DNA from: Heptranchias perlo
Lineage: Eukaryota
Assembly: GCF_035084215.1 (NCBI RefSeq)
Contig: NC_090340.1
Location: forward strand, 15,004,001-15,068,000
Length of the DNA: 64,000 bases
Reading direction: 5' to 3'
Below, one piece after another: positions 1,666 to 58,831 of the stretch. The position numbers and the translations under genes were made by a program. How positions within the stretch are numbered: position 1 is the stretch's first letter; the number at the start of each line of letters is the position of its first letter. Below the pieces are notes generated by a model, which saw nothing but the letters and a program-made list of their open reading frames with translations, made no database searches and was not told the DNA's origin.

Positions 1666-1689
1666 TAATGACAGTGATAGTAACAATCA

Positions 1690-4075
1690 TTAAGATAGTT
1701 CACGGAAAACTCCTGGAAAATATCAACAAAAACATAAAATTCATATTTTAATGTGAAATATAATTGAGAACCGATAGTAAAACCTGAAGTTATATCATCC
1801 GCTGCACAAATATTCTCAGCCAAACCTTATTTGCCTTCAAATTCCTGTATTTGATGTAAAAGCAAGAGGTTTATCTTTGTTATCTGATTATATTCCATAT
1901 TGTGCTTAATATTAATCACTTTATTTTTTGTTCCCATCATCAAATGGTTTTATTCGTTATTATTATCTAGCTTTCCTACAACACAACGATTACCAAGAGC
2001 TCCGTTCAAATTATCGGCTCTCGCCTTTCTCCCAATGCAGTTACCGATCCTGACCACCATTTTCGGCGATTCCCCGTGAAGAGTTCTGAAATTAAGTCTC
2101 TGGCCAACTTGTGTCCCTCACCCCTCCATGGCACAGCGGTTTGGAGTTGAAACTGTCTCTTGCATTTCAACTAAGCGGTGCCCACAACCTGGCTGCAGTT
2201 CAGCCGGTTACACCGTTTTTGTAACAAACTGATTGTCGAGTCAGACAATAGTGAATAAATCACCGCACGTCGATCTCCTATACTATTCAGTGACATTCAG
2301 TAATACAAAGGCGAACTTAATTATGACTTAACCATGAAGGCAGTGTTATCTGATTTCAAGGAGCGCCGATTGTTCCAGGCAGTAATATTCTCTGCACTTC
2401 AAAACCAGAAATCCTCACGGAATCGGATTAAAATAGTTTTGATTGCCCGTATTTGCAACAAAAGTTTCCACTTTGCAACATGATAAATGGAATGTCCGGC
2501 GACACAAAATCACTTTCCAAACCATTTGGTTGTGGGTGCACAACTAGTTTGAGTGAAGTGCTCTGAGTCTCCGGCCACTAATGGCTATAGATCATTGCTG
2601 ATCGCTACAGTCAAACACTCTCGGTACGATCTAAAATTGAAAATCATGTTCGGCACCATACCGACTGTAGAAATCTCTTTGAAACCACTGATATGGAAAC
2701 TCAGTGAATATTTTAATTATTCATTATGATAAAATTTCATTAATTCAAAGCTGAAAAAGAAGGCGTAACGGGACCGAACCGTTGTGAAAAGCCGGTACGT
2801 TCATTCATTCATTCCCGCAAAGGGTTCAATTATGCAGAAAGATTGATATCATGGAGATATTTAATCATAATCATGTCAGAACAATTTGCCTATTTCCTAA
2901 AAGTATTTGTTCCGCTTACCCGCTTAATGGGTCATACAAATCGTGTTCAGAAAAACATATTTGACGCCAGCGGGGAAGGATTTCACCCTCGGGGAGGAAA
3001 TAGTTTTTCGGAAAAGAAAAGCGAGCGCGGTGTAAAACGGGCGGCCGATTCGCTATCGCTCGTTTCGCGGTATCGCCGAAGGCCAATTTCACTCCCGCCC
3101 GGCGGCGCGTGGCTGTTGCAAATTATTAAATAGGAGGAAAGAAAACTGTCCGTTTAGTTAAAAATGCATCTAAGTAATAACTGTTTATAGATTCAATATT
3201 ATTTGTAATGGGGGAAAATAACTTAATGAATCAGTGTGCTGGAAGTAACGCTCATTTAAGCATTTCTTTATTATAAAATGAAGATTGACAGCTTTAAATA
3301 TTAGGTACAGTGATCACAGTAGTCACCGGTCTTAACATTCGCACGTATGTAGCTATATTAACTATGGTTTCTGCACTTTATTTCTAGCGTATGTTGCTCT
3401 GTTCAATGTTTAACCAGTAGTCTGTAAACTGGTGAAGGCAATGAACTAGCCACATAACAAAACATATACTTGGTTCACATCCAGGAAACAAAGGCTGAGA
3501 CAGTTGATACGCTGCAATAGGTTTGAGCAAAGCTCAGTAAACTCCAAGACGTAAATTTGCAGAGGAAAGGACTGTGTACCATCAGCCGGAGCTTGTAAGC
3601 GGAACAGGCGGTCACAGATCACCAGTGTAGCATCAACGTTGTGGTCATAACGGAAAATATAAGGTTGGTTGACCCTTGTGTATTGTAACTAACGCTGTTT
3701 GCGTGTTATTCTGATGATTGTTTTCGGCAGCAATCCACAAACGGGCAAAACGACCAATTAACAATATTTCCAAAGATGGGTTCACAGACCAAACAAGGGA
3801 CCGACACGACTCTGGAAGTGTCAAGCTCCAAACAAACGGAGAAACCCAAAATAAATACAGAATAACATATTCCAATATTATATCATTGATCGTGGGTGTA
3901 ATTATTTGTTATTGCTTAATCGTTTGAGGAATTTTCATTTATTTTCTTGTAATAAAAATGAACTTTCCTTGCATATTTTTGATCAATATGCACTATTTAA
4001 CAGATGCGAAATCTTTGCAACGATACGCTAATTGTTTTGCTGTACCTCGATATTATCATGCATAATTTCAATAAA
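1690..4075 (+). pseudogene. Receptor copy A, 3' part: post-C1 intron, TM exon deleted, cytoplasmic exon 1 (2751-2794), frameshifted ITIM exon (3485-3520)
   Basis: Colinear with 12980-15982. AG|ctgaaaaagaa...aagccg|GT reads AEKEGVTGPNRCEKP. CAG|gaaaca... reads ETKAETVDTLQ*, with YAAI and TVYHQ left in the shifted frame. AATAAA at 4070-4075. Upstream exons are not in the window. Confidence 0.75.
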
Positions 4076-5012
4076 AATATATGATCTACGATTTCTCTCT
4101 GTTCACCATTAATGATGATTCTTCTTCGCGAGTAAAACCGTGAAACCTGGGTTTTGACCGATGTGTTTCCTTACTGTATTCTGCCTTCCAGTCCAGGCGA
4201 TTCTCCTGATGTGGAAGGCAGGACGCTCCAGTCTATTGACTCGTCCATAAACCCACTGAACCCAGTTTGCAGTTGATGGAGCATGAGATGCCTTTCTCTG
4301 AACTCTGAATGAATATTCATTCCTATCCGAAACGATGCGCCCGGACAGTACCAGTTCACTTCTAAAGGTCCTAAGTAGTGAGAAAAGCCCGACGGAGCTG
4401 AATGCATTTTTATTGGAGAAAAGACTAAATTTATAGGGATTCAGGTCTTTCAAGTGTCGAAAGACTTGGATAATGTGGCAAAAAGCGGGTTTTATGGTTT
4501 TAATACGCAACTGGAGGCTCTGACTTACCAAGCCTCAAGAAAGAGAATAGAGTTAAAATCATTTGCCTCTTTTACTGTGGATGTCTGATCAACTGAGGGA
4601 TAACAACAGTTTGAAAGGTTAAACTATCAGATATTTCACAAGTAGATCACTTGAATTACAGGACGAGAACGAGCTGGTTACTGGAAGAACAGCAGCCCAA
4701 CAGTTCCAGTGACTAAGCCCTTTACTCAGAATTTAAAGATAATACAAGACGAAGTGAATCAGTTGCATTTTATTTACCTTAACTGTCCTGGTTTGATGAC
4801 TGTGTCCATCAACATGCATTTCAGAGTCCTAGAATGTTACAGCGCGGGAACAGTTCATTGGGCTTCTTAAGTCTGTACATTTTTTCTATCCATATGAAAC
4901 ATTTAACTTGTCCTACTTTTCTTTTGGATTCGCACTATCTTTGATATCCGTATTTCAAGCAGCTAATTCCATTCTAAAAGAAATCCTGGACTGTGTTTGT
5001 GGCAGAGAACTC

Positions 5013-11194: not shown

Positions 11195-14100
11195 ATGTTG
11201 TCGAGTGTGGTGCTTATGTTCCTGCTCCTGTCTCTCCGGGGAATTATTTACACAGGTATCTTTTATTCTCCATCCCAGCTGTCGCAATGAAGAAATGCAC
11301 CTGAAGGTGTTACCACTTAAACTGAATGACATTTAGTTCGTCTGCTCTATATTCTTCTTTCTCTAATTTATTTCCATGTACAAATATTTTCGAAAGTGCC
11401 TGGTTCCACATAGCATATAAGTAACCAAATTTTTAATCTATTTTCTAACAGCTGCTGCACGTATTTCTCAAACCCCCGAACAAGTGATTGCATTAAGGGG
11501 GGAAAACATCACCTTCTACTGTGTAATCCCGCTCTCTCAGGACAACTCAGAAGTGCATTGGTGGAAACAGGGCGAGAAAGCATATTTGCAAACAACGGTC
11601 GATAACAGAAAACGATTTGGTGTCAAAAATAAAGGAGCCAGTTTCTTTGAGCTACGGAACGTGACCTTCCAAGACTCTGGAATCTATCAATGCACAGTGA
11701 TCCGTCAGGGAAGCGTTAGTGGAAATGGAACGGGCTCAAATCTAATTGTGTGCGGTAAGTGACTGGGGTGAGTGGGAACTTCCAAATGTATCCAATGTAA
11801 CAGTATAAAACATTTATATTAATACATTTACAGTCAAACTCAATGTTACTCCAATATCTCTGTACACAGCTGTTAATTACACGGCACGATATGGCGCTTC
11901 ATTTACTGAGTTGTGTGAAATTCCATCAATATTAACCAGAGTAAGTAATATATTACTGGATTCATCTCAACATGTAGTTTCCACATCAGACTTCTGATGA
12001 GGGAAGGTGCGGAACAAATTCGAAACATATAGATGACTGACTGAAGATCTTTCATATTAATGCGCCTCCCCCGCCATATACAGGGCTCTTAACCTATTTT
12101 AGAAGCTTTGTTTGTCCCTGTCGCTGTCAGTGGGGTTTAACGGTCACTCCTGAAATTAATGCTCACATACTGACAGGCTGGTTCGAATGGCGGATTTCAG
12201 ATAAGCTACAATTAACTGTTAATTATTGGATTTACTCAACACATAGAACCATGAACCAGAACTTTGCCGCCGCTTTCCCCTGCAATAAACGAATCATTCC
12301 CCAGAGATTGTGTTGCTGAAGCCTTCTGAGGTTGAGCGGAATGTAATTTCCCTGAGCCGATCCCATGCTCCTGCTGTGTGGGCTTCCCGATATCCACTAG
12401 GGCCCTCCTTTCAGTATCAGTAATATACAGATTACTCGTTTCTTTCTTGGGGAGACAGACAGACAGAGCTAGAGATCCTAACAGAGAAGGACAGAGGATG
12501 CCATTCTTCTCCCACATCTTCTGTTACCTATCTCCCCAGAAACCTGATTTTCCACATTTTCTGTCCACAGCTGCCCCAACTCCACTGAAGATTGTCTCCA
12601 GGACACCCGAGAGCAAACCATCTGCTTCTCTGACTCTTGTGTGTGAAACGGCTGAGTTTTACCCGGAGGATTTCACCCTCACTTGGTATAAAAATGGCGT
12701 CAAAACCACAACTGGGATAAATATGACTAAACGGCGGAACACTGAGGGTCTGTATGAAGTTTCCAGCACTTTGGAAGTGACTCAGCCGAAGCGGAATGGG
12801 TCTGTTTACACCTGTTTGGTAACTCATGTCGCCCTCCAGACTCCCGCCATTGCAACCTACACTGTCAGCAATTCCGACTCAGGTAAGGAGCCAACAGTCG
12901 AAGAAGCGAGGTCAGCTACTGTTAAACACTGAAAGGATATTTGATAGGGTTTGTTCATATTAATAATCAGGAAGGTGATTCACGGATAATTCACGGAAAA
13001 GTCATGAGAAATTTCAACAAAACATAAAATGCATATTTTAATGTAAAACATCATTGACAACGGGTAGTAAAAGCTCAAGTTATATCATCCGCCACACAAA
13101 CGTATTCAGTCAAACCTTATTAGCCTTCAAATTCCTTTATTTGATGTAAAGCAAATATAAGCAGAAGTTGAGTTTTGTTATCCGATTATATTTCATATTC
13201 TGCTTATTATTTATCACATTTTATTTATTTTTGTTTCGATGTTAAAATGGTTTTATTCGTTATTATTATCTAGCTTTCCTGCAACAGGGTGATTCCCAGG
13301 AGCTACATTTAAGTTGTCTGCTCTCGGGTTTCTCCCAATGCAGTTCCCGATCCTGACCCCCCTTTTCAGCTACTCCCAGTGAAGAGTTCTGAAATTAATT
13401 ATCTGACCAAATGAATCCCTCACCCTTCCATGGCACAACGGGTTGGAATGGATCTGCCTCATACATTTCATTTAAACGGTGCTCACAACCTGGCTGCAGT
13501 TCTGCCGGTTACACCGTTTTATTAAAAGCTATTTGCCTGGTCAGGCGACAGTGAATAAACCATCGCGCGTTGATCTCCTACTTTGCGATATTCTTACCTC
13601 AATAAATACAGTGCAGTGTAGATATGTGAATTGGGAGTTTTAACCGATTTCTGCAATTCGGCATTTTGTCCGGCAACGGTGAAACGATTGTCATCGAATT
13701 GCCCGCGATTTCATCCAACAATAAATAAAGAACATGAGAAAAGTCAAGGGTAAGAACAAACCATTCGGTCTAGGGAAACATCCCTCTCGTATTCTACCTC
13801 TTCTAAAACAGTGTTTCAATAGTCATAAATTCAGTACCCCTCCTCGAAGATAATTCCAAAAAGGTCTCATCCATTTCAGACATTTGAGAAATTCCTTCCA
13901 ACATTATATCTAAAAAAAGTAACATTTTTAATTTATTGCCGTTCTACACTGTGCAGTTGCTGAAAGCATCATTACTTTAACCAAAAAACGCTCTTGCGGC
14001 ACCTTTTTAGGAAACGCCCGCCATAATGTACAACTCAATATATATGCTCCTATTATTCTTGCAGTTCGTGATGGCATGTCTCCTTACTACTCGGGTTTTA

Positions 14101-14711
14101 GATATGCGATGTGCGGTGTGGCGTTACTAGTGCTTCTGGTCATCATCCGGTCGCACTGCCAATTGCAGGTTAATAAAGGTAAGTTCTACTGTAAGCGTTT
14201 GATTTTCATTCAAAACTTCAGGAAGCGGTGGGGAGAAGTAGTGAGAGTCTCCGAATAACACAAAGAAGGCAGTGTTATCTGATTTCAGGCAGCGTCCATT
14301 GTTCCAACAGTAACAGATTCTGCACTTTATAACGCAGAAATCCTCACAGAATCAGCTTAAAAATTGATCCGATTACCTCTAAATTTGCAACAACAATTTC
14401 CACTTTGCAGTGTGATAAATGAATTGTACCCTGACACATAATCACTTTCCAAACCAGTGGGTTGTGGGTCCCCAACAATGGAGCGGTGTGAGGCTCCGGC
14501 CGGCAATGGCCGTAGGTCATTGCTGATCGCTACCGGGACTCCGATTCAAATACTGTCGGTACAATCTGAAATTGAAAGTCATGTTCCGCTTCATACTGAC
14601 TCTGGAAAGGTCTATAAAATCACTAATGTGGAAACTCAGCAAATATTTCAATCGCTCCTTATAATTAAATTTCATTAATTCACAGGTAAAAACTGCACCG
14701 AACGGTCGTGA
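11195..14711 (+). CDS. Receptor copy B: intact VJ-C1-TM Ig-superfamily receptor (NKp30/SIRP/TCR-like architecture), 271 aa; exons 11195-11255, 11452-11754, 12571-12882, 14065-14178, 14686-14711
   Basis: All four introns are GT-AG and phase 1, and the 816-nt spliced ORF is open. It encodes signal peptide MLSSVVLMFLLLSLRGIIYT, V and C1 domains with canonical residues, a TM segment and tail RSHCQLQVNKGKNCTERS*. An in-frame upstream ATG at 11153 is an alternative start. Confidence 0.85.
11452..11754 (+). CDS. Copy B exon 2: V-set Ig domain with germline-joined J-like G strand
   Basis: ITFYC...VHWWKQ...LRNVTFQDSGIYQC...GNGTGSNLIV; acceptor ttttctaacAG, donor GTaagt. Confidence 0.92.
12571..12882 (+). 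CDS. Copy B exon 3: C1-set Ig domain
   Basis: LTLVCETAEFYPEDFTLTWYKNG...GLYEVSSTLEV...YTCLVTHVAL carries the C1-set FYP, W and YxCxVxH motifs; acceptor ctgtccacAG, donor GTaagg. Confidence 0.92.
14065..14178 (+). CDS. Copy B exon 4: transmembrane exon with arginine
   Basis: ttcttgcAG|...YYSGFRYAMCGVALLVLLVIIRSHC...K|GTaagt. It is 114 nt, the same length as the paralogous exon at 39388-39501. Confidence 0.85.
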
Positions 14712-15397
14712 AAGGCTGGTACGTTCATCCATTCATCCCCGAAAAGTGTTCAAATATGCAGAAAGATTACTATCATGGAGATATTTTTATCATAATCATG
14801 TCAGAACAGTTTGCGTAATTCCTAAAAGTATTTGGTTTGTTTCGCTTAATGGGTCACTCAAATCGTGTTCAGAAAAACATTTGATGCTGGCGGGGAGGGG
14901 TTTAACCCCTCGGGGCGAAATTGTTTTTCGGAAAAGAAAAGCGAGTGCAGTGTACAACGGGCGGCCGCTTCGCTATCGCCCGTTTCGCGCTACCGCCGAA
15001 GGCCAATTTCACCCTGTCTCCGGTGTGTTGCTCTTTTAAATTATTAATTGGCAGAAAAGAAAACTGTCAGTTTCGTTGAAAATGTGTCTAAGTAATTACA
15101 GTTTATAGAGTCAATATTATTTATAATTGTGGAAATTCTTAATATTGTGGAACAACCGCTCATTTAATCATTTATGTGGTGTATAATGAATATTGACGGG
15201 TTTAAATAATAAGTTATAGCGAGCACAGTACTCACCGGTCTTAACATTTGCACTTATGTGACAATATTAATTATGGTTTCTGCAGTTTATCTCTCGTCTA
15301 CATTGTTCTGTTCACTGTTTAACTAGTAGTCTGTAAATTGGTGAAAGCAGTGAACTAGCCACATAACAAATCATATACTTGTCCCTGGCCTATTTGG

Positions 15398-15500
15398 GAA
15401 GCAGAGGCTGGGATCCTTGATACGCTGCATTAGGGTTGAACAGAACTCATTAAACTCCAACACGTAAACTTGAATTGAAGAGGAATGTGTAAAATTAGGC
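15398..15500 (+). pseudogene. Dead ITIM/ITSM exon of copy B
   Basis: Homologous to 56883-57029. The acceptor reads TGG instead of CAG, a 1-nt deletion precedes tac gct gca tta (YAAL, 15421-15432), there is an internal TAA, and the second Tyr codon has become TAA. Confidence 0.8.
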
Positions 15501-38322: not shown

Positions 38323-38754
38323 TAAGAGGCATCCAGAGGCCGCTGCTAGAAAATGCCGGTCGGATGGCACAGGGGAGCGCTCGACAACGTGATCCCCGTC
38401 CGCACTCGCTCTCTTGACCTATGCGTGAACAGTGGTCACGTGAGCAAAGAACGGCGGGCTGAGAAGGCGGTGCACATCCCAGCAAGAATCCACGCCTTGA
38501 GAAGGGGAGAAACGAGGAGAAACTGGCAAAGTAACCAGACGAAAACAGTTCACTCTGAGAGGCATGTATACCATATTAAATAACTGTCCCATAACACCAA
38601 CCTGGCAAATTTTACAGATGTTAATGCAATAATTAACAAGATCACTCGGAAAGTGGCGACTGCGATACGAATTCTTCAACCATACATATAAACCTTGGAA
38701 AATTGAAGAAACAGGCTGCATTTTACGACCACTGCACGTTCCAAAGAGATTCAC

Positions 38755-39133
38755 GGCCATTGAAGTTCGTTTGAAGTGTAGTCATTGTTATATTGTAGCA
38801 GCAGCAGCAAATTTGGCATAGCAAGTTCCCACAAAGAGCAATGAGAAAAATGACCAAATAATTGGTTTTGGTGAAGTGGATTGAGCAATCAATATTATCC
38901 AGGGCACCGGGGAGAACTTTCCGCTTTTCTTCGAAATAGTGCTATGGGATCTTTTATGTTTACTGGAGATGGCAGATGGGCCTCGGTTTAAGGTCTTGTT
39001 GGAAATTCGGTTCTTCTGACAGTGCAGTACTGCCATGAAGTGTTCGCCTAGACTTGTGCTCAAGTCTCTGGAGTGAGAACTTGAACGCACAACTTCCTGA
39101 CTCAGAGCGAGGAGCTACCATGGAGCCAAGGCT
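38755..39133 (-). mobile_element. tRNA-derived Deu-domain SINE (SacSINE1/AmnSINE-like)
   Basis: Minus-strand head agccttggctccatggtagctcctcgctctgagtcaggaagttgtgcgttcaagttctc has A/B boxes and is followed by the Deu core. Confidence 0.8.
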
Positions 39134-39387
39134 CAAATTTCCTTTCGATGTTCAGATTTTACTATTTGAATTATCCTGTAACAAACTGAATTAAATATGA
39201 AAATTGTTGTGTTAAAAGTATCAGTTTTCCATATTGTCTGCAATTTGGTACCAAAACGTTTTTATCGGCATATTTAAGTTACATAAGAAACAGCTGACGA
39301 AACCTCAATTCTCATCTCCATACCGTCAATCTTATCTGTGTATATGCTTTGAAGGTGATTTCCTGAATTAATAAAGCATTTTCTTAC

Positions 39388-40998
39388 CTTCAATGGAAGT
39401 TACTTTTAAATGGTCCACAATAATATCCGTCAGTCCAAGAATTACCAGAAAACCCATGACAAGCCGACCAATCATGAGGAGCCAAATGATGAAATTGTGA
39501 TCTGAGGTGTCGTTTTAAAACCAAAATATAAAACCGTTGCATATAGAATTATCGAATGGAAGCAACAATAATTTGTTGATACAAAGTAATGGGGTCCATT
39601 AAATGGCTGGTTTAAACTGCACTCCATGGGGGTCGATTTTAACTTGCCGACATCGGGGTTGACAGCGAAATTAGTGGCTCAAAATGGGCTCGGTAAACTA
39701 CCACACCGACCACGGCGTCTTCCACTTTCACAGAGAGCCTATTGCTGGGGGCTAGTGCCTGTTTGTTTCAGGTAGCAGGACCTTCTTCATATCTGAAACG
39801 GATGTGCAAAGGACTCCGATTGCCGTTTTAAGATCGAACTGGTGTGCCCTGCACTCTCTGGCCAGTTTTACTAGAGATAGATATAAAGAGGACTTGAATA
39901 GTTAAGTTTTAAATTATTTTTAAATGCCAGGACGAGTGTCAATATGAGTCTCACAAAAAATAACCTGTGCCGCTGCAACCCGGGCTTCCCAATCCGGGAT
40001 CGCCAGAGCCCGATTTACGTTGCTGGGCACCCGACGGTCTCCGGGCCTCCCTGCGCCCGGCATCGGAACGCCGGATCTGCGTTAACATTCCTGATTTTCA
40101 CTTAAGTTGCCTGGGGTCGACTCCCCACATGGGAGTCTGGTTCTAACTGGCACAGGAGTCCTGCAAATTGTCTCCTTCCGAACTGTAATTTCGACGATTC
40201 CTTAATTTTACTCCAAAATCTGCAGTGAGGGAAACTGTTATATATTCGTCTAAAGAGTCCAAAGCCGTAGTGGTAGCCAGAATAGATATGCTCACCAATC
40301 CACAAGAACCTGAGGAGGGCCGTGTCTCAGTGGATGATGGCCATCCAGGTAATAGTTTACTTACATTTTTGGAGAATGCTTGCAAAAGTTTTTTTTCCCG
40401 TGAGGCTTTGAAGAAAATTCAGGCTCATGAAATTCAGGGGGAGTTGGAAAGTGATAAATGGACAAGGCTCTGTCTGGGGAGCAGTAGAGTTCTACCCGTT
40501 CCATTCTATGCTATCTGGTCTATTGATCAATAAATACAGAGGAATCACTTCTAGTAATAGCCCTAGATTTTCTGATGTCTTCAATGTATGGATAGGTAAG
40601 AAGTAATTTAATAATACCCAAAGCAATCTGGGTCATTTGAGGAAATGCCCCTGAAAGATGCTGGGTGCAGTTCTACACATAACCTGTCCCAATTTTACCT
40701 TGATCAGCGGTGTAGATGATACTGGCGTGCACCAGCAGAGAGACATGAGATACGAGACAAGTATAAACAACCCCTCTCCAGGCAGGCTGCGCTTCTTCCA
40801 TAAAAAAACTGGAAACCTCGTATAGCCCCTCCACTCTCCTGTTTTTCACAGTTTCTCTTCCAGTCAGAATTTCGACGCCACCTCTTCGCCAGGAGATTCC
40901 TAAGTGTTCCGGGCAAAAGGCAGCCTTTTTATGCTCGAGTTTCAGAGAAGTCGGTGAAATCCTTTCAATAGGATCGATTTTCAGGGGGCTTGGGGAAA
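39388..40998 (-). pseudogene. Receptor copy E (inverted): degenerate C1 exon ~40684-40998 and open TM exon 39388-39501
   Basis: C1 relic PSPLKI...AFCPEHLGISW...EGLYEVSS...YTCLVSHVSL lacks the first Cys and has no AG acceptor. TM exon ctcAG|DHNFIIWLLMIGRLVMGFLVILGLTDIIVDHLKVTSIE|GTaaga. No leader or V exon found. Confidence 0.82.
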
Positions 40999-42899
40999 TT
41001 TTGTCAGAAAACATTGTTAGTATTAGTCTCCGTGTATTTATTACTGAAAAATTTGGTAATATCGCAATCTTACCTTAAACTAGAAATGCTTGGGTGCAAA
41101 TTTATCATTTCTGAACATCAAAGTTTGTACATGATCACTACAGTCGAATAGCCTAGTTTCGCGAGACGCATTCACGGGAACGAAACGAAGGGAAAGTGAA
41201 TTTTCTATCGCCGGCGGTTATCAGATTTTAGGTGGTGTACAAATTTGATGATGTCTCTGGGCAATTTCGTAAATACTGGTGTTGTACATAAATATAGTGC
41301 GGTGCCTGAATAAGGCTGGGTTGGAATCTCAATGCAGCACAATTACCAGAAACCGCTTTCTCTGCCTGGGTGAAATCCTCCGACACTGACCCAGTTGGAT
41401 AAACACTGCACGTAGGATTTGGGGAATTCATGAAAATTAGTTTTCCTACCACGCAATATTCTTCCCCGAAATGAAATCCACAAGCTTACATTTTTTTAAA
41501 ACCTGGAGAGAAATTAAAGCATTTCGATATTTTTAAACAAATATGAGTCGACATTCAGCCCAGCAATTACAATAACGCCACAAAATATGGCATAAGTATT
41601 ACGATTGACTACCCTTGATCCAACATAATTGCTCACTCTTGATCTTTGAACCCAGCACAAAAGCTGTGTCTTGGACAACTAAACGGAACGAAATCTATCT
41701 CTTCACTTTCTATTCCAATACCCTCCCTAACCCTTGCGGAATCTGTGGCAATGTTCTATCTTCCCTATATTACAACACGCAGAACCTATTCGCCCAGTGA
41801 AAATATGTAGGTGACTACTTTGACCGCAAGTCAAGACAATTTGGGACACAATTTTGGGTTGGCAGTTCGAAGCGGGTGATATCGAATTGGCATCTCGTTT
41901 TTCATTCCGCTCGATGGACCTCAGTGGAGAAGGAAACCGGGCGGCTTGTAAAACGGACTGGCGATTAATTATTAGTTCCCGCACAAGACGGATTTATATC
42001 CCAATGCCACTTTGCTGTGAACAATGTCAACAGAATTATTCTGGGGAAACACCGTGAAGATTTCACCTCGAGCATTAATCCCAACAAACATATCAATACT
42101 TAGACCCCCGCTCCGGCTATGGCATCAAGCATCGGCCCCCAAAATGTAGAGACCTTTGGAAAACGCCTCAAAATATTAATAAGGGGCGCCATGTTCTGGG
42201 TCCGGGCGTAAATAACTGCCGACTGATGCTTAGTCCAACATAACCATTCAATGCTAGAGCTCATTGAATCTGTGAAGTAACTTCAGCTAAATCAACCTTA
42301 CATCCACAATGCTGGATATTAGAGGCCAATGTTTTGGCCAGTTAACGTCTGTTAATTGAAGTCCAAGATCTATGTTCCAGAAATTTGGGATTCTGTAAAT
42401 TAGACAGTTTCCCTACTTTATAGAAACAATCTGAATTTTGTCTCCATCGTTCGGTGGAGTTGGAATTATATTTATCAACTCTCTAAGTGTTTACTCTGAA
42501 AGGAAAGCTTATGCCACATTTCCAGTTGGTGAATCTGAGCCCATAGGAAGGACATCTTCACTGTGCTCTCTATTTTTTTCTGAAGCATGGCTAATTAAAT
42601 GCCCTCATATCACTTCCTTGAGCGCTTTATGCATGGATGCCCCAAAAACCAAGGAACCATCTTCTACCGTGTGTGTTTATTGATTACTGTCTCCAGCATT
42701 AATATGAAAGTCAAGTCGAACATGAATTCGTGGTTTTTTCTTCACTGTTGAAATGTCTTGTTCTGTGAGGGTGATTGGAGTGTGATGGGAGGCCACTTTT
42801 CCGTCAATACTTGTACCGTGCCATGACCTATTTCCTGTGACAATGAAGCAGGACTAGTAGCTGACCTGAACGTAGTAGTCTCATCCAGTCGGTGACCTG

Positions 42900-43504: not shown

Positions 43505-44173
43505 CAGTTACCTACCGGTCCCATTGGACTTCCCCGGGATTCATGGAATTTAGTTCAGCAAATAATTGGAATGTTTACTCAGTTTCCGTGTCCGTGATTT
43601 CAAAGACATTTCTAGTGTCAGTGGAAACCCTTGCATCATTCTCAATATCACAATTATCCGATAGCGTTCGGAAGCCCAGCCCCTGTAACTATCTGCAATC
43701 GAGTGCAGCCATTCCGGACTTCACTCAAACTAGTTCCAGCTCGCAATAGACTGATATTAAATGTGATGACCTACAAATGCAAATTTCAGATACCAACTAC
43801 TCTAAAATGGGCATTTCTGCTTTCAATACACAGATATTCTGACCCATTTATTATATGATTCTGTGAGGATTGCTGCACTTCAAAATGTCTTACTTATTGC
43901 TGTTTGCTGCAATCAGCAATCGCTGTGCCTGTGGCCCCGGACAACGCTGTTTTCAGTTTTCAGTGATACGCCCGTTCTTCTCTCTGTGTTTCACCCTGGA
44001 CCCTTTCGTTTTCACTCTGAAGTGTTGTAAAAGAAGCAACACCAAAGGTAAAATTATGCTTCATCACATATTAAAGCGGCATCGCGTACCGGTGATGATC
44101 CTAATCACTGGAAATGCCGATCTAGAAAATGCACACTCACAAACGCTGATGTAAGAAATCATACCGCCACAAT
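43505..44173 (-). pseudogene. Receptor copy F (inverted): decayed TM exon ~44060-44173, following intron and cytoplasmic exon 1 relic ~43510-43545
   Basis: tcttgcAG|DCGGMISYISVCECAFSRSAFPVIRIITGTRCRFNM* aligns without gaps to the copy B TM exon. The reverse complement of 43510-43630 matches 2650-2780 and 56200-56320 (gaaatgtctttgaaatcac...ggaaactgagtaa...aatgggaccg). Confidence 0.65.
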
Positions 44174-45071
44174 CTGCAAGACATTTTCCGTTATTTCGGG
44201 AGCTATTTCTGGCCCAATAATCTGTCTCACCAGCGTCCAAATCCAGCTCCCGTTGCCTATTCGTGGGTGAACAATCCAAAGTTTGGTGAAATCTGCTTGT
44301 GAATTTTGGGAATAATCCATATCCAAAGATAAAAAGCGATTTCGCAATAAATGCTTGGCTGCCACTCAATTTTCACCATAGTAGCTTTTCGGGAATTTCC
44401 TGCTTAAATCCACCGCACATATTTTGTTTAACTTATTTTGTAGTCCAGTTCTGATTGAATTGTATGGAATCCATGGATCAACACGAGAATCACATTGCTC
44501 TTGCATAGCATCACATCGGGAAATCTATAATTCATAATTTCATCCAGTCTTGCAGATTACGGCACCGTGTAAGACACGCGTTCCATAAAGCATGGTTTAA
44601 TCCTTTGTGGTCAGTTTCTATATTTACTACTTTAAATAATACATTTCCAGTGTCTTGCCGTGGCTTGCTGTCTCTTTATATTCCCTTACGTTTAAGTGAA
44701 AGTATTATTGCTTTTAGTCTGACGATGTGCCCTTTGGAGAAAACGAGACAATGGAGTGGGTATCCTGCATAATCTTCATTGCACCATACTGCATTTGGCG
44801 GGTAATTGTTAACCCCTATGCCCTTGTGGCACAATGACAATGCAGGTTTCTTTTCATATGAGACTTCTTCCTGCTTATGCAACCAACGTTTCTGTAGTGC
44901 CCTAAAGTTACAAGTCTTGAAAGTTCAGTCTGTTACAATCTATTTCCTGAATTGGCAGCCACATGCCCAACGTCACTGCGTCACAATTCGTATTACACAG
45001 TTCGCAACCACCTTTTCATTACCAAAATCATGCACATTGCGGCGAGCGATCGCCTTACTCCTTTGCTCAGA

Positions 45072-45748
45072 ATGTTGACGAGTTTTGTTTTTTCTCCTAG
45101 AGATCATTTACACAGGTACCTACAATTCGATAACCCAGCTGCCTCGATAAACAAAAACACGTGAAATGGTTTCCTCTGAAATACAATGAAATTTAAATGT
45201 CTGCCAATTTTGCTTCTTTCTTTTTTTCATCTCTACGTCGTGTCTATTACAATTAACCAAACTTTGAATGTATTTCCTGATAAACGCTTCTAGTATTTCG
45301 ATCAGTGAATTAACTTCTTGAACAACCAATTACTTTCAGAGTGACACACATCACCTTCGATTGCATATTCTACTCAATATAAATCCAGTGCGATTTAGTT
45401 CATCTTTGCGATTCTTCTTTATCTCTTTCATTTGCAGGTAGAACTGTGCTCTCAAGTGTCTGGTTCTGCGTCCAATGCAATTAGCCAAACTTTGCATGTA
45501 TTTTCTAACATCTGCGGCGCAGATTTTTCGATCTGAGTGGCTCGAATTCCCGAACAGGTGATGGCATTCAGAGGGACACACATTATCTTCGACTGTGTAA
45601 TCTCCTTCTTTCAGGTCAACTCTTGGACAGAAGTGCTTTGGTGGAAACAGGTTGAGAATGATTACCTGCAAAGTGAAACGAATAGCAGAAAATGATTTGG
45701 TTTGAAAATTAAAGGAAGCGGTTTCCTTCAGTTGCTGAACGCGACTTT
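45072..45748 (+). pseudogene. Receptor copy D: frameshifted leader 45072-45115 and truncated V exon ~45512-45748
   Basis: The 44-nt leader ends tttacacag|GT and the acceptor AG has become AT. V reads PEQVMAFRGTHIIFDCVIS...EVLWWKQVENDYLQSETNSRK*FGLKIKGSGFLQLLNAT (TGA at 45693-45695) and is then cut by a CR1. Confidence 0.85.
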
Positions 45749-45749
45749 A

Positions 45750-46172
45750 AGATAAGAACCATAAGAAATAAGAGCAAGAGTGGGATATGCGGCCCCTCGA
45801 GCCTCCTCTTCCATTCAATAAGATCAGGGCTGATCTTCTACCTCAACTCCACTTTCCCACCCGGTACCCATATCCCTCGATTCCATTAGTGTCCAAAAAT
45901 CAATCGATCTCAGTCTTGAATATACTCAAGGACTGAGCATCCACAGCTCTCTGGGGTACCAAATATTCACAACTCTCTGATTGAAGACATTTTCCCTCAT
46001 CTCGGTCCGAAATGGCCGACCCTTTATCTTGAGGCTATGACTACAAGTTCTAGACTCTCCAGCCAGGGGAAACAGCGTCTCAGTATCTACCCTGTCAAGC
46101 CCTTTAAGAATGTTATAAGTTTCAATGAGATCACCTCTCATTCTTCGAAACTCCAGAGATTATAGGCCCATT
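45750..46172 (-). mobile_element. CR1 3' fragment truncating the copy D V exon
   Basis: MRGDLIETYNILKGLDRVD...FNQRVVNIW plus CR1 3' UTR. Confidence 0.9.
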
Positions 46173-49990: not shown

Positions 49991-52900
49991 CTGACTCGGA
50001 TGCAAGAGTGCTACCAATGAGCCTCCATGGAGACCTAACATCACTCTTGTTGAATATTGTATCCTCAAACTTACTTTAATCACCACCATGGGAGATCCAA
50101 ATATTAGCAAATTTGCAATGGCGAGAAAGAGGTTCTACAGCTGTGTACCAAGGTGGGTTTCTAGGATTTGTAAGTGGAAGCAGTGCACAACTCGACTGAA
50201 ATAATTTGGAAACCTGTTTAGAAGGAACAGAATTTAAGAATATGGGTACTCGTTCCCAGCAGAACCTTAACTCTCATCCTGGTTATATCGATGGTGTGAT
50301 CTTAATCTTCAGCTCCTCAAGTCCAAGAGGCGCACACTTGATTGCATCTTGCAAACAAGTGGCGCAGCCATTTAATGCCAAATCTCGCTGGACCAAATGA
50401 AGCTTTGCAGAGTATAACTGCCCACTGCCACAACTGCCCACTACACTTGAATCGTCCTGGAGAGCAAAAGTCACCTATTGTTTCTTTCCTCTTCTACCAA
50501 CGACCGGCTGAAACCCTACTCCCGTAACGACAAGTTCAAAGAAATCATGGATGCATTTGATATCAAATAGAGACCATCCACTCTACTGCATCTCCATTCC
50601 ACTTTCGTGCCAAACCAAACCTATCCTCCACGCCATTCCATATCTATGAGTCCTGTTTCTCTGGAGCTTCTCTCCTTTCTTCCCTCATGCACTCTCTATG
50701 CTCATCTCATTCACACGAAACAATTCCTGCTCCATAGAACCTATTCGCACCATACCGTTGCCCACCTAACTTCCCTGTCAGGCGGTCATGAGAGCTAACA
50801 TTGTAACTGTCTCACTCTCCAAAGGGATTGTCCATCTTCGTTTGGAAACCGCTGTCATCAACCCCTCTCAAAAAATTTACCCTCGACCCCGCTCTCCTTG
50901 CAAACTACCACCCCTTCTCCAACCTCCCTGTCCTCCCTTAAAATCTCTTAGATATGTGCCCATCACCCCGTCTTAAACCTTCCATATCTCCAGCTGTCAC
51001 TTCTCCTTTACAAACCTCCTTCGAATCTGGTCTTTCAGAAAGCTTTAGGTGCTAATATCTCCTTTATTGGCTTTAACTCCTCCATTGTACTTGCCGCTCT
51101 GTGAACCACCTTTTTTCGTATTTCCACGTTAAAGGCACAATGTAAGTGCAAATTGAAGTTTTTATTGTTGCTGGGTTTTGTGGTTGAGGTGAGGTGGTGT
51201 GGGGGGTGTGGGGGTGCTGTTTTCTATTATTGCTTTCTCTATTGCCCATATCTGAGAAATGCCATCAGGGAACTTCAACGGAGATTGGCAATCTGAACCA
51301 ATCTGAGAAGCATGACGTGTTAATTTGTGGAGTGCTGGTATAATGCGAAGCTTTATCTACATTGTTTAAGTCTGGTGCGCCTGGATAGGGGCAATACGTG
51401 AGACTTTTAATTCCATAGATTTTTTAATGTTCTTCTCTAGATCTTCTTTGAAGCGGATGCTCTTCAAACGGTGATAAAGCCTGCATTGGGCAGGAAGTCG
51501 AATGGGAAGAATGTTACCTTTTACTGTTCTTAACTCGTTCTTCCGTCATGAGTGTTTTACTTGCAACTCATTCGGCGGCCAATTTATGTTTAACTAAGTA
51601 ACATAACCACTATAAAGCCAATTTGCACGATTTTAATGTGGCAACCATTAATGCACTGAATTAATTTTGGACAGAATCCGAGCGCTGATAACAGGACAAT
51701 AAAATTGCAGGTAAAGCCAGATTTCAAGGACACATCTGCAGCTTTATAATAGGATTCTACGCTGTGTGTTTTTTCAACATCGGAAAGTTAAAGAAATATA
51801 AAAATGAACAGTTGATAACAAGGAAGCTCACGGTTTGCCACGTCTACTCTCTGCCCATGGAACGACGTTATAATGAAGGGTTTCCGACACCAGCATCAAC
51901 ACCCAGTCGCATGACAACGCACAAAATCACGTGATCACTGATCTTTCAGCTTGTATATTTCTCATTTCGGATTGGTGTCAAGTCTTCTGAGGTATAAGAC
52001 ATTACAAAGCACAGCATCAGTCTAAAATCACCTGACATGTTCAAGGAATTGTGAACTTTTAGTTAACAGTCTGCATACAGGAAACTGCCGTATTAATCAG
52101 TCCTTTTCTAACCAACGTTTTTCAGTAAATATTGCTGCTTATTATTCACAGGCTGATTATGAACGACCTATGATAGTCCCTATTTTGTATTGATTTGGCA
52201 TGTCAAGTATATTTTAGGTCACGTTAAAGTAGTGGGCAGAAAATGGCCAGTGTCCGCATCAACGTCTTGCGAAATTCACCTGAGAAGATCGCACTCGCAC
52301 CTCCATTCCTGCATCTTAATCATCAGGAAACAACACTGACTGCACGAATTTTAGTAAATTCTGCACTTGGAAAGCAAATATTTAACCTTACTCTTTGCTG
52401 CCCGTGAGACATGTGAGTCCAATAGCCGAATAAGTGCAGAAATTTGCATATCGCACTGAACAAACGAATCATCTGTTCTAAAGCCGCAGTTTCAGGAGGT
52501 CAAACGACAATGCGATGCATCTCATGAAAAACAAAGCACAAACCATTCTAAACAATGGCAAGCTCGTAATTAGTGCAGTGCGTCAGTTTAATCTGTTGCT
52601 CAGAATGTCGGCCAGTATGGTGTTTCTGTCCTTGACGCTCCGGGGGATTATTTGCACAGGTACCTCTTTATTCACAAGAACAGCTACTTCAATTTATAAA
52701 AAGATTCCGAAGTCGTTTCCACATAAATGCAATGATCGTAATTCCTCTATCTAGATTCATTTTCTCTCTCTTCCAACTCCATGTCGTATCTAATGCAATT
52801 AACACGGACTTGACTATATTTTCTGACAGCTGCGGAACACAATTCGTTCAGAGTGACTCAAGCGCCCAAACGGGCAATTGTATCCAAAGGGGGAGACATC

Positions 52901-53832
52901 ACCTTCTACTGCACATTCTCCATCTCTCAAGCCCAGTCCCAAGACTCTGGAGTCTATCACTGCGCAGTGATCCGAGAGGGAACAGTTGGAGCAAATGGAA
53001 CCGGATCATATCTAATTGTGCATGGTAAGTGTGAAACACCGGAGAGCGGGACTGTCGCAAACCTATCAAACATAACAAACGGGAATGTTTTGTGATTGCT
53101 TTATTGTACGGTTTGTGGCAGTATAAACATTTCTGCGAACACATTTCGCGAGAAATTTAAGTTGCAGGTTCGCGTTCTCTATATACAACTGCCAATTAGA
53201 GAGTAAAATATTACCCTTCACATGCAGAGTACAGCAAAATGTATCAATATTAAGCAGTTGGAAAAAAACTCCAAATAAATTTATACACCAGATATCTGAT
53301 AGCGGAGGTTCAGAACAAATTCCAAGCTTATAACTGAGTGAAAATTGTTTCTATTAACACGCTTGCCCCACCATATACACGGCTCTTAGCCCATTTTGGA
53401 TGCTCTGACTGCCCCCAGCGCGGTCTCTGGGGGGTTTAACATTCAATAAATTTTTTCTCACATCATGTTTGGCTCGTTAGCGTCACGGATTTGAAAGCCA
53501 GCGTGCAACTAACTATTGATTAACGGATTCACTCAACAAACTGGAGCTTGGAATTCACAACGTTGTCACCTCACTAACCCCCAATAAATACAATACGCCG
53601 GAACTGTATTGCTGCAACCTCCTGAGGTTCAACCGTATAGTTTATTTCACCAATTGTTATGCTTCAGCTGTGAGATCAGTCCAATACCGAGTAATGCCCT
53701 CCTTTTTTCATCGGCAATGTGGAGATTACTCGAATACTCGTCACTGTCTAACTGAGTAAAGAAAATGGAGGGAATGGGCGCGCCAACTTTCTCCCAGGGT
53801 TCATTTGTTTAATTCTTTGGACTCTGAAAATC

Positions 53833-53904
53833 GCAAACAGATATATTGTAGAATTTGCAAACAGATATATTGTAGAACTTGCAAACAGATATATTGTAGA
53901 ATTT
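53833..53904 (+). repeat. 3 x 24-bp tandem repeat
   Basis: gcaaacagatatattgtagaa(t/c)tt at 53833, 53857 and 53881. Confidence 0.95.
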
Positions 53905-54248
53905 GTATTGATAGTCATGAAGATAGTTCACCGGAAACGCATGGGAAATATCAACGAAAACATAAAATTCTTGTTTTAATGTATAATATTATTGAATCCG
54001 ATATGTTGTAAAATGGGGTTATATCGTCCGTAGCACAAATATTCTCAGTCAAACCTTATTTGCCTTCAACTTCCTCTATTTGACATATAACAAATATAAA
54101 CAGGAGTTTATCTTTTGTATCCCATTATATTTGCTCTCCTGCTTAGTATTAATACTTCTTCGGAATATTTTCCAATTTAAAATGGTATTATTCTTTACCA
54201 CTGCCGGCTTTCCCTGCATCAGGACCATTACCTGGCACTGCAGTGAAC

Positions 54249-55918
54249 TTTTTTTTAATTCGATCATGGGATGTGGGCGTTGCTGATAAGGACAGCCTTT
54301 ATTGCCCATCCCTAATTACCCTTAAGAAGGCGATGATGAGCCGCCGACTTGAACCGTTGCATTCCATGTGGTGAAGGTTCTCCCACAGTGCTGTTAGGTA
54401 GGGAGTTCCAGGATTTTGACCCAGCGGCGATGAAGGAATGGCGAGATATTTCCCAGTTGGGATGGTGTGTGACTTGGAGGGGAATGTGCAGGTGTTGTGT
54501 CCATGTGTCTGCTGCCCTTGTCCTTCTAGCTGGTAGAGGTCGCGGGTTTTGGAGGTGCTGACCAAGGTGACTTGGCGAGTTGCTGCAGTGCATCCTGTGG
54601 ATAGTACACACTGCAGCCACGGTGCGCCGATGGTGAACGGAGCGAATTTTTAGGGTGGTGGATGGGGTGCCAATCAAGCGGGCTGCTTTGTCCAGGATGG
54701 TGTCGAGCTTCTTGAGTGTTGTTGGAGCTGCACTCATCCAGGCAAGTGGAGAGTATTCCATCACACTCCTGACTTGTGCCTTGTAGATGGTGGAAAGACT
54801 TTGGGGAGTCAGGAGGTGAGTCACTCGCCGCAGAATACTCAGCCTCTGACCTGCTCTTGTAGCCACAGTATTTATATGGCTGGTCCAGTTAAGTTTCTAG
54901 TCAATGGTGACCCCCAGTATGTTGATGGTGGGGGATTCGGCGATGGAAATGCCATTGAATGTCAAGGGGAGGTGGTGATGGTCATTGCCTGGCACTTGTC
55001 TGGCACGAATGTTATGTGCCATTATCAGTCCAAGCCTGGATGTTGTCCAGTTCTTGCTGCATGCGGACACGGACTGCTTCATTATCTGAGCGGTTGTGAA
55101 TGGAACTGAACACGGTGCAATCATCAGCGAACATCCCCATTTCTGACCTTATGATGGAGGGAAGGTCATTGATGAAGCAGCTGAAGATGGTTGGGGCTAG
55201 GACACTGCCCTGAGGATCTCCTGTCGCAATGTCCTGGGACTGAGATGATTGTCCTCCAACAACCACTACGATATTCCTTTGTGCTAGGTATGACTCGAGG
55301 CACTGGAGAGTTTTCCCCCTGATTCACATTGACTTCAATTTTACTAGGGCTCCTTGGTGGCACACTCGAGCAAATGCTGCCTTGATGTCAACAGCCGTCA
55401 CTCTCATTTCACCTCTGGAATTCAGCTCTTTTTTCCATGTTTGGACCAAGGCCATAATGAGTGTGGAGCCGAGTGATCCTGGCAGATCCCAAAACAAGCA
55501 TCGGTGAGCAGGTTATTGCTGAATAAGTGCCACTTGATAGCACTCTCCATGGCACTTTCCAGCACTTTGCTGGTGATTGAGAGTAGACTGATGGGGCGGT
55601 AATTGGCCGGATGTGATTTATTCTGCTTTTTGTGGACAGGACACACCTGGGCAATTTTCCACGTTGTCGGGTTCATTCCCCCGTTGTAGCTGTGCTGGAA
55701 CAGCTTGGCTGGAGGCGCGGCTGGTTCTGGAGCACAAGACTTCAGCACTACAACCGGGATGTTGTGGGGCTCATAGCCTTTTATGTATCCAGTGTACTCA
55801 GCGATTTCTTGATATCACGTGCAGTGAATCGAATTGGCAGAAGACTGGCTTCTGTGATGGATATGTCGGGAGGAGGCTGAGATGGTTCACCCTCTCGGCA
55901 CTTCTGGTTGAAGATGAT
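54249..55918 (-). mobile_element. LINE (CR1/L2/Crack group) RT and 3' end, occupying the position of the copy C TM exon
   Basis: PANYRPISLLSITSKVLE, GDPQGSVLAPTIFSCFINDLP, MFADDCTVF. Left flank ~B 13300, right flank ~B 14380. Confidence 0.92.
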
Positions 55919-58831
55919 TAGTTGCTTAATTGCTCTCGGACTTCTCTCCTGTTGACAATTCTCAATCCGGACAGCACCCTCCACCTTGCAATAAAAAGTT
56001 ATAATTTGCAGCAAGTGATAAATCAACTGTGCTCTGACACACAGTCACTTTCCAACCCGTTACGTTGTGGATGCGTTATGACTTGGAATGAAAACGTGTG
56101 TGGCCCCGGCCCGGCAATGTTTTACACCGTTGTTAATCGCTGCAGGGGCAGGGATTCAAACACTGTCAGCATAATCTGAAATTGAATATTATGTTCGGCT
56201 TTGTACTGACTCTGGAAATTTCTTTGAAATCACTGAATGGAAACTGAGTAACTGTGTCAATCTTTCAATATCATTAAATTTCATTCGTTCCAGGTAAACA
56301 GGAACGTGTAATGGGACCGACCCGCCATGAAGAGCTGGTACGTTCATTCATTCATCTTCTACAGAGGGTTCAAATGCGAAGAAAGATTGCTATAATGGAG
56401 AGATATTATCACAATACTGCCAGAACAGTTTAAGTCTATTTACTAAAAGCATTTGCCCGGCCTTGGTGAATCATTCAAATCGTAGTTAGAAGCGTATTTA
56501 GCAACCGGTGCGTTGCTGGCAAAAAAGTTAGATAGCGGACAAGAAAACTGCTAGTTTCGTTTAAAATGTACTGAGTTAATAACCGTTTATCGAGTCATCT
56601 ATTGTCTGTATTGGAAAAAAATCCTTTATATTCAAAACTGCCGCTTATTTAAACATTTCTGTAACATATTGTTGTGGAGTGAATATTGACAGGTTTACAT
56701 ATTAGTTATCGTGACCACAGCACTCATCAGGTTTAATATTAGTACTTATGCCAATATATTATGCTTTGTGCACTTGATCTCTAGCCCAGCTCGTTTTGTT
56801 CAATGTTTTGTCAGCAGTACGTAAATTGGTGAAGGCAATGAACTAGCGACGTAACCAAATATTTGCTTTCTGGCCCATGCAGGGAGCAGAGGCTGATATC
56901 GTGCATTGTGCTGCATTAGATTTCAGCAAAGACATGAACATTCCAAGACGTAAAGATGAAGAGGAGCGGACCGTGTACGCTCAGGTAAGGCTGAGTAACA
57001 GATCAGAGAAACATGGATCATTACTGTAACACAAACATTCATGCGATAGTGGAATATTTAAGGTTGTGCTGACTTTGACCTTGTATTGTATCAAAAGCTA
57101 TTTGTGTATTATTCTGATGACTGCTTTGAGCAGCAGTCCACAAAACTTGCAATACGTCCAATCAACAATATTTCCAAACATTGGCTTTACAGAAATAAAG
57201 GGACAACTCGAGACAAGTTGGCGTAGGCAGCTCTAGCAGTGACTGGCTCAGTGAAAAGGGCGCAATGCAAAAATGACGAAAGAAGCACCGACTATGCCCA
57301 GCTACCATCGCAAAACCAAAGAAGAATAACAAAGGTTGTTTACTCCGAAGCAAGAACCAAATAGCGATAGAATTTTAGATGTCGAAGTCTATGTTTGATG
57401 TCTACTGATCGCTTTCCGCTGCGGTATCAACTAAGCGCGTTTGTATACCGTGAAATACCGTACCTCCGAGAGGTAACGCATTCGAGTGCAATATCAGAGA
57501 ATGCAGTCTCTCGTCTTTACTTACTGTTCAATTGCTTCCTGAATTTTCAATTAGCTGCTTTTAAGAGAAAACTAACTTTCCTGACATACTTTCATGTTAA
57601 ATCTGTATTATCTAACTAAACACAGATCTCTATTTCAATTACAATGACACGCTAATAGTCTTGGTGTACCTAATTATCATCATAGAAAAATTCAATAAAA
57701 CCAGATTATACACGATCTCTTATAAATCAACGATTCGTGCGGCTTTTTTGGGAGTAAAACTGCAAAACTTGTGCGTTAATTTATGTGTCATGTTACCGCG
57801 TTCTGACTTCCTGTCCAGGTAACGCTCCTGATATGGAAAGCAGGAATTTCCAGTGTATGGACTCGTCCATAAACCTACTGAACGTAGTTTCCAGTTATTT
57901 TATGTCCTCCAAACATCTGTTTACCCATGTGGCCACGTAGAATCATATAATCTTACAGAACAGAAGGAGTCCATGCGCCTGTTGTGGTCGTGCCTGCTCT
58001 TTGAAAGAGCTATCCAATTAGTCTCAAACCCTGCACTTCCCCAAAGCCCTGCAATGTTTTCCTTTTGAAGCATTTATCCAATTCCGTTTTGAAAGTTCCC
58101 ATTGGACCTGCTTCCCCCACTGTTGCCCTTACTTCTAAGATTCATTATCCTATGGTGTTACTTTGTCATTTTTGTCAATATCCATGCAAACGACATTTGC
58201 TGTATTTCCTATATTTAATCTCTCTGCTGTTTCTCCAAAGCATCCTAAACTGAAAGTCAAGCATGATCTGCGTTTTCGAAATCCGTGCTGACTTGCCTTG
58301 ATGAGCTCAGGTTTCTACAGGAACACAACAGTTTTATCCCGAATGACACAAGGCCTGGAAAATTCAAGGAAATATGCAACTGTTTACCTGCCATCATGTT
58401 TCAGTTTACTTCACATTCGATGTTCTTATCTAATAACAATTCATTACTTCAAAATGGAGTCGAAGTGCTGCAGATTATTTTGATAATTAGTTAACCGAAC
58501 AAGTGTCACATCTGTATAAAGGAATCAAAAGGTCAATTTGTGGGCGTTCTATCAGTACTGATAAAGTTCTGATAAAGTTTAAGCGATTAGCTGGGGGGTG
58601 GGGGGGGCGGCGGGGTATTAGACGGAAATGACATGGTTCAGTCACTCAGCTCGAAGCACCAACACTGATACTTCTAAATTTAACTCTGTTAATTGCAATA
58701 TACTGAAAATGTATCTAGTGTCGAATAGCGGCAGTTATTGCTCATCGCATGTTTCAGTATAATTATAACAACACTTGATGTTCACATTCAATTAAGATTT
58801 TATTTAACATTCGATTTTTCATTGCAGCTTC

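Follow-up and report, generated by a model that had tools for sequence, protein, structure and literature searches.

A tandem family of non-rearranging VJ-C1 membrane genes in Heptranchias perlo, likely germline paired receptors of cartilaginous fish

An intact VJ-C1 gene in the window

The stretch of Heptranchias perlo DNA analysed here, 64,000 nucleotides of contig NC_090340.1 and called the window throughout, holds part of a tandem family of genes in which a V domain and its J segment, encoded together, are followed by a C1 domain, a transmembrane (TM) segment and a cytoplasmic tail. The window was screened by six-frame translation, with profiles built from 38 family proteins and with an exon library from intact neighbouring genes, and 30 loci of the family were fetched and annotated in the same genome. 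C18 is the contig that carries the window, other C-numbers with a contig sense (C3, C11, C42) are contigs of the same genome, and L and P numbers label loci and proteins. One gene of the window, copy B, is intact; its exons, and a decayed exon that encoded an immunoreceptor tyrosine-based inhibitory motif (ITIM), are the following.

11195..11255, plus strand: leader exon (ATG, 20 codons plus 1 base, GT donor)
11452..11754, plus strand: V+J in a single exon (open frame, AG/GT borders; Cys, Trp-Trp, DxGxYxC and NGTGSxLxV; no recombination signal sequence nearby)
12571..12882, plus strand: C1-set exon (open frame, AG/GT borders)
14065..14178, plus strand: TM exon, activating type 1 (helix with Arg at its outer end)
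14686..14718, plus strand: small cytoplasmic exon (predicted protein end after 8 residues)
15396..15491, plus strand: first ITIM exon, now decayed (frameshifted, with stops; matches the L038 ITIM exon at 71% of nucleotides)

From leader to short tail, copy B (11195-14718, plus strand) keeps AG/GT borders and phase-1 junctions. Its V+J exon matches the Pfam V-set (E 2.8e-9) and its C1 exon the Pfam C1-set (E 4.6e-16), and the splicing predicted from sequence gives a precursor of 271 amino acids without an ITIM. Its type of TM exon is present at 6 places on C18. An RNA check of 3 contig sets from one sample, an uninformative set, gave no exon joints on copy B.

The initial annotation of this stretch had called the genes non-rearranging, and this is borne out: V and J share one exon, and the pattern that detects 4 recombination signal sequences in the T-cell receptor (TCR) gamma locus finds none near any of 11 V exons. 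A rearranging antigen receptor, TCR or immunoglobulin (Ig), was rejected on these grounds.

A family concentrated on one chromosome

Searching the genome with the C1 domain of copy B returned 149 matches, the best 103 of which all lie on C18 (2.7-6.0, 14.5-15.6 and 19.0 Mb); this is a hand count, some matches are halves of broken exons, and it is to be read as a lower bound. With the V domain, 98 of 100 matches were on C18. About 100 C1 and 98 V exon matches are therefore found on this single chromosome. On another chromosome, an orphan V exon of the family (L120, contig C1, 103.49 Mb) is dead; it was considered as a retrocopy and rejected, being a dead genomic copy.

Duplication accounts for part of this number: copy B has a twin 300 kb away that is 99.5% identical over the 3.3 kb tested. 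C18 carries near-identical segmental duplications, 14.68-14.76 against 14.98-15.06 Mb and 3.46-4.02 against 4.26-4.85 Mb, which may be recent duplications or false haplotype duplications, that is, an assembly artefact.

Putative activating and inhibitory members

Among the 30 loci examined, an uncharged TM segment followed by two intact tyrosine exons is found in L035, L038, L042, L066, L068 and L069, and L041 combines two tyrosine exons with a Glu in its TM. The tyrosine motifs of L038 are IVHYAAL..TVYAQ and LTYATL..TDYAEL. In the genes with an Arg in the TM segment (copy B, L034, L039 and L040), the tyrosine exons are broken or absent from the sequence retrieved. Arg TM exons come in at least two types, and in L070, P0002, P0007 and P0014 a single Gly-to-Arg change stands at the corresponding position.

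A paired activating and inhibitory family had been proposed from the window alone, and scoring intact members for TM charge and ITIMs supports it, since both types were found. The existence somewhere in the genome of an intact ITIM-bearing member, on which that proposal had been made to depend, is established by L035, L038 and L042: the window holds no intact ITIM gene, and the same cluster holds several. The two types can share nearly the same V domain. L035 (ITIM) and L039 (Arg) are identical at 105 of 106 V residues (dN 0.004, dS 0.073), and L042 (ITIM) and L033 (Arg, type 2) at 104 of 105; the catshark models P0064 (ITIM) and P0007 (Arg) agree at 204 of 208 ectodomain residues and have opposite tails. 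Of 109 database family proteins, 65 have a scorable TM segment; an ITIM-like motif occurs in 2 of the 14 with Arg versus 38 of the 51 without, and the median tail is 16 versus 109 residues, in rows that are non-independent because they include isoforms and kin. Pooled pN/pS is 0.66 for V and 0.62 for C1, which is weak constraint, as in immune receptor families.

LILR, KIR and NITR are paired receptor families of C2, I or V-I domains. The present family resembles them in its tandem birth-and-death cluster and in its near-identical ectodomains with opposite tails, and differs in its VJ-C1 build. Pairing of a TM Arg with an adaptor Asp and recruitment of SHP-1/2 by ITIMs are established for NKp30, LILR and SIRP. 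Working similarly, ITIM members would recruit SHP-1/2 once their V domain binds a self ligand, and Arg members such as copy B, losing their ITIM exons, would signal through the Asp of an adaptor of the CD3-zeta/FcR-gamma type; an adaptor TM segment with Asp of this type is encoded on C11. The Arg members could counter pathogen mimicry or sense altered self. Activating members would arise repeatedly, by a Gly-to-Arg change or the swap of an Arg TM exon and subsequent decay of the ITIM exons, and birth-and-death turnover would leave the pseudogenes seen in the window.

Our best reading of the family is one of germline paired activating and inhibitory receptors that combine an NKp30-type V with a C1 domain. 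By analogy, they would work as LILR, KIR and SIRP do; their build is like that of a TCR chain, and they appear to belong to no named family tested. We put at about 75% the probability that the window belongs to a tandem array of some 100 VJ-C1-TM genes that do not rearrange, join near-identical V domains to either an Arg-bearing TM segment or an ITIM tail, and are likely germline paired receptors of shark leukocytes.

Several points weigh against this reading. No transcript, protein, ligand or cell type was seen for the family, and its database gene models are automatic. Most copies in the window are dead, 13 uncharged proteins have no ITIM and 2 Arg proteins have an ITIM-like motif, and V dN/dS is not above 1 overall. 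Family counts may be inflated because the duplication holding the window may be an assembly artefact. Finally, the predicted fold fits B7-type ligands as well as receptors.

That fold is a confident V-C tandem whose nearest structural neighbour is B7-H6 (Z 16.6, root-mean-square deviation 3.8, 193 residues aligned), level with two more V-C tandems. The best matches, B7-H6 and other V-C tandems, span Z 16.6-16.0, and PD-L2, B7-H3 and butyrophilins are further top neighbours. A match of predicted folds of this kind indicates no function. Together with the database models named CD276-like or NCR3LG1-like, these neighbours are what would speak for the genes encoding not receptors but B7-like V-C1 ligands, carried by cells that present antigen or are stressed. 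We regard such ligands as very improbable, given that a GxG J-like motif is present in 56 family proteins and not known from B7 V domains, that B7H6-like C1 domains are separate in the tree, and that mutually exclusive Arg TM segments and ITIM tails are features of receptors.

Remaining copies and other features of the window

At least seven cassettes on one plan had been described in the window. The plan itself stands in copy B, the only complete one (1 of the 7 named); copies A, C, D and E are broken, and the probable places of G and F show flank homology only.

1677..4400, plus strand: copy A, remnant of a pseudogene (post-C1 intron present, TM missing)
2765-2801 and 3478-3585, plus strand: small exon and first tyrosine exon of copy A (stops present)
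27374..30304, plus strand: non-coding flank homology, probably cassette G (no exon found)
38553..41000, minus strand: copy E, pseudogene (no V)
45062..45752, plus strand: copy D, a pseudogene (leader dead; V carries two stops and is truncated at 45752 by a repeat)
52605..57363, plus strand: copy C, inhibitory-type pseudogene (leader present, 126 nt missing from V, C1 and TM lost by deletion)

A broken C1 remnant of copy A lies at C18:14994880, 9 kb upstream of the window. At the probable places of cassette F (32555-33833 and 43286-43715), only non-coding flank homology was found. In copy E, the C1 exon (41000-40698, minus strand) has lost its splice acceptor and its first Cys has become His, and the last exon (38712-38553) is frameshifted. 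Its type-2 Arg TM exon (39501-39388, minus strand) and that of copy B (14065-14178) are the two Arg-bearing TM exons reported earlier. The tail with ITIM-like and switch (ITSM) motifs, also reported earlier, belongs to copy C: its tail exons are present, and the gene is a pseudogene in which both ITIM tyrosines are lost, the first to Cys (56880-56984) and the second to a stop (57198-57363); in the supposed ITSM, TVYAQV, the final Val is supplied by the splice donor.

At 23033-25612 there is an element resembling a long terminal repeat element, with 308-base ends that are exact inverted copies of each other and an internal leader of short repeats; it looks like a rearranged retroelement remnant.

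Taxonomic range and database names

Of 61 matches in named databases, 55 carry shark, ray or Callorhinchus names, 2 have Callorhinchus-series accessions, 1 is nameless and 3 are sauropsid outsiders; ten weaker family-like matches looked up from a library of 1.84 billion all come from cartilaginous fish. Relatives with both signalling types are present in sharks, rays and Callorhinchus, Arg and ITIM forms being found together in Callorhinchus. The family is shared by sharks, rays and chimaeras and is therefore older than their split. The genomic loci annotated have one C1 domain, and a skate model with two (P0074) is the single such case among the models scanned.

Family proteins are named automatically as SIRP-like, tapasin-related or tapasin-like, CD276-like, class II beta, Ig lambda, NCR3LG1-like and PD-L1-like, and in the Atlas the family matches generic V-C1 clusters only.

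Phylogenetic position and relation to named families

Trees were built on alignments of only about 110 columns, and approximately unbiased (AU) tests were run on reduced sequence sets. The references were Ig light chain (IgL), IgH, IgNAR, TCR-gamma, UrIg-like, NKp30-like, tapasin, B7H6-like and C11 VJ-C1 exons of the same genome, with labels that we assigned from motifs and context; SIRP was represented by one bird and one lizard sequence, and the trees held no TCR-alpha, -beta or -delta, NITR or named PRARP sequences.

The V domains of the family form one clade (support 99/96 and 96/88), as do the C1 domains (100/100). Nesting of both within a characterised family, such as germline-joined IgL clusters or SIRP, had been named as an outcome that would speak against the proposal; each instead forms a clade of its own, outside Ig light chains, TCR-gamma, UrIg, SIRP, the NKp30-like sequences and the VJ-C1 genes near CD247. 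A broader V group also includes the NKp30-like and C11 VJ-C1 domains (89/84); Ig, TCR-gamma, UrIg and SIRP fall outside that group, and the family C1 domains fall outside the antigen-receptor C1 group. Joining the family to TCR-gamma is not rejected (AU p 0.055 and 0.135).

In the mixture-model tree, the sister of the family V is a set of turtle multi-V domains (98/89), which take this place in two of three trees (98/98 in the other), the sister in the third being unresolved. These turtle and lizard receptors (P0163, P0131 and P0216) share Arg TM and ITIM forms with the shark family, and differ in lacking a C1 and in having from one to six V domains. With P0059, they are nameless paired receptors of tandem NKp30-type VJ domains, misnamed as pIgR-, titin- or A33-like. 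A likeness between the shark type-2 and the turtle Arg TM segments was dropped as not specific, an unrelated C11 TM segment scoring higher (44 vs 40). Chemokine exons are joined to two turtle models, in one case as a tail whose spacing we take to be CX3C-like; PDB singled out neither CCL17 nor CX3CL1. CX3CL1 and CCL17 are located at human 16q21, and the fusion is a weak hint at the same region as the family locus.

A germline-joined Ig light chain was rejected: a TM segment is present, AU rejects the family V with IgL (p 0.023; p 0.086 for C1), and there is no FGxG J motif, the residue before GxG being Asn in 48 of 56 family proteins and never Phe or Trp. NITR membership was rejected because the second domain is C1-set and not I. 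UrIg is described in the covered parts of PMC12227049 as secreted, with three C1 domains and MHC-linked (MHC, major histocompatibility complex). UrIg and UrIg2 are, like the present family, non-rearranging shark VJ-C1 genes, and UrIg is the best PDB sequence match; the family differs in its TM segment, and grouping with the UrIg-like gene on C42 is rejected for both V (p 0.019) and C1 (p 0.010), so membership was rejected as well.

SIRP calls for more weighing. The family could be the cartilaginous-fish SIRP, or its genome-duplication sister, with one C1 and acting as myeloid self sensors of the CD47 type. Automatic annotation is often SIRP-like, SIRP-alpha is the second PDB sequence match (E 3.7e-14), and AU does not reject the family with SIRP (p 0.10 for V, 0.34-0.35 for C1). 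VJ and C1 domains, paired signalling and a four-tyrosine tail, a feature of SIRP-alpha, are common to both, and human 16q and 20 are ohnologous. This origin is nevertheless unlikely in our view. SIRP is never joined to the family in the best tree, where the family forms a separate clade and its V prefers turtle multi-V and NKp30-type V domains; SIRP is V-C1-C1 as opposed to the single C1 of the family; and the Arg lies near the outer end of the membrane, whereas SIRP-beta has a mid-membrane Lys. The SIRP locus adjoins NSFL1C, and the SEP-domain genes of NSFL1C type are on C22 and C3, not on C18. A bird SIRP V query gave 0 of 23 matches on C18 and none on C22 (best E 0.0014), and no Ig domain was found in the 40 kb 5' of the C22 SEP gene, a stretch too short to exclude a shark SIRP.

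The family might also be a group already described in the Ohta-Flajnik and Zhao papers (VJC1/PRARP, NCR3 or NCR3H) that has expanded at a further locus. PRARP/VJC1 genes are V-C1-TM with ITIM or ITSM, and L035, L038 and L042 match this plan of single-exon VJ, one C1, TM and tyrosine motifs. NKp30 (NCR3) and NCR3H share with the family a VJ-type V without Phe or Trp118, an Arg near the outer TM end and the broad V group (89/84); AU rejects neither NCR3-like (p 0.21) nor C11 VJ-C1 sequences (p 0.14 for V, 0.37 for C1), and the likeliest papers are outside the literature covered. We nonetheless hold this to be improbable. The family numbers about 100 copies, activating members among them. The NKp30-like V on C42, which stands with a UrIg-like gene and whose identity we take from motifs, forms a separate clade, and so do the other VJ-C1 genes, on C11 near CD247, some of which may be PRARP. 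NCR3H has a single VJ and a TM segment, with neither the extra C1 nor the ITIM members of the family. NCR3 is likewise a single VJ with TM in the covered parts of PMC11999971, and NCR3/NKp30 membership was rejected because the family has a C1 and its locus, on C18, is not MHC-linked.

Joined-VJ genes named in the covered parts of PMC12227049, PMC10751288, PMC11599192, PMC11999971 and PMC3964593 are NKp30, PRARP, UrIg, UrIg2, SIRP, NITR, CD8, CD79 and NCR3H, the non-rearranging PRARP/VJC1 genes being named in PMC10751288 and PMC11599192. No description of the family was found there or in the rest of the literature searched. Because the papers likeliest to mention it are outside that literature, we set at about one in four the chance that some listing of it already exists.

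Chromosomal setting

The 14.5-15.6 Mb cluster on C18 is flanked by AMFR (15.67-15.72 Mb) and BBS2 (15.74 Mb) on one side, and by an EEPD1-like gene (14.41 Mb) and KIAA0895-like/MATCAP1 (14.32-14.36 Mb) on the other; we take these to be genes of human 16q13-22. The AMFR first exon gave no match in the Atlas. The EEPD1-like gene (L081:6781-7713, C18 14.407 Mb) is divergent and stands tail to tail with MATCAP1, an arrangement that presumably mirrors the human EEPD1-KIAA0895 pair; it is probably an ohnolog lost in mammals.

Synteny with the MHC or an MHC paralogon, suggested by the initial annotation, was not observed: 0 of 43 MHC I matches are on C18, all being on small contigs, and PBX, like CD247, SEP-domain genes, WT1, myogenic factors and MENTAL, is on other contigs and not on C18. 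Its proposal of a special closeness to the pre-RAG antigen-receptor ancestor is not supported either, since V goes with NKp30-type domains, C1 is outside the antigen-receptor group, J has no Phe or Trp118, and the locus is off the MHC and PBX chromosomes; such closeness is one of architecture only.

A TCR-gamma locus was predicted beside a MENTAL-domain gene and then found there, with V, J and C exons and recombination signal sequences (L121-L127, C3 121.75-121.80 Mb). A more speculative history follows from this setting, in which the family is the unrearranged survivor of a VJ-C1 gene on a pre-duplication chromosome whose four copies are now TCR-gamma (human 7p14), TCR-alpha/delta (14q11), SIRP (20p13) and the family (16q). 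The human regions 7p14/8q, 14q11, 16q and 20 are ohnologous to one another, MATCAP1 and an EEPD1 paralogue border the cluster, EEPD1 and KIAA0895 are, we assume, about 2 Mb from human TRG, and C3 has a SEP-domain gene as well as TCR-gamma. On the other hand, the family and TCR-gamma are not united in the trees, the EEPD1-like gene has the cluster on its opposite side, and STARD3NL, the direct neighbour of TRG, belongs, we believe, to a different paralogon. We find this history doubtful; if it were true, antigen receptors would trace to the paralogon of TCR-gamma, TCR-alpha/delta, SIRP and the family, not to the proto-MHC.

Other loci were observed along the way. Two small non-rearranging VJ-C1 groups lie on C11 (L053-L057 and L135; 48.0-48.1 and 54.2-54.4 Mb), 2-4 Mb from CD247, and one of them shows an EIPPP loop of CD28H type in its V domain, with a C1 and a TM behind it; they are candidates for PRARP or for CD28H-like genes with a C1. 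Multi-C1 B7H6-like genes are present on the chromosome of the family (L060, C18 36.96-37.0 Mb) and on C12 (L116, 29.12 Mb). An exon resembling OSGIN1, which we place at human 16q23, adjoins the larger cluster (L106:4817-4948, C18 6.10 Mb) and has no database match.

Significance for cartilaginous fish

To our knowledge, cartilaginous fish have no recognised large natural killer or myeloid paired-receptor system beyond NKp30-type genes. As germline paired receptors, the genes described here would apparently make up a large, unnamed family of this kind, and matched activating and inhibitory alleles of a shared V, spread over about 100 loci, would fill that gap and give testable candidates. Seven or more misleading names conceal its genes in databases. 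The family would link the VJ-C1 lineage to a nameless reptile receptor family, and would extend the short list used to argue about the origin of antigen receptors (NKp30, PRARP and UrIg) by a VJ-C1 lineage that is membrane-bound, signals and lies outside the MHC.

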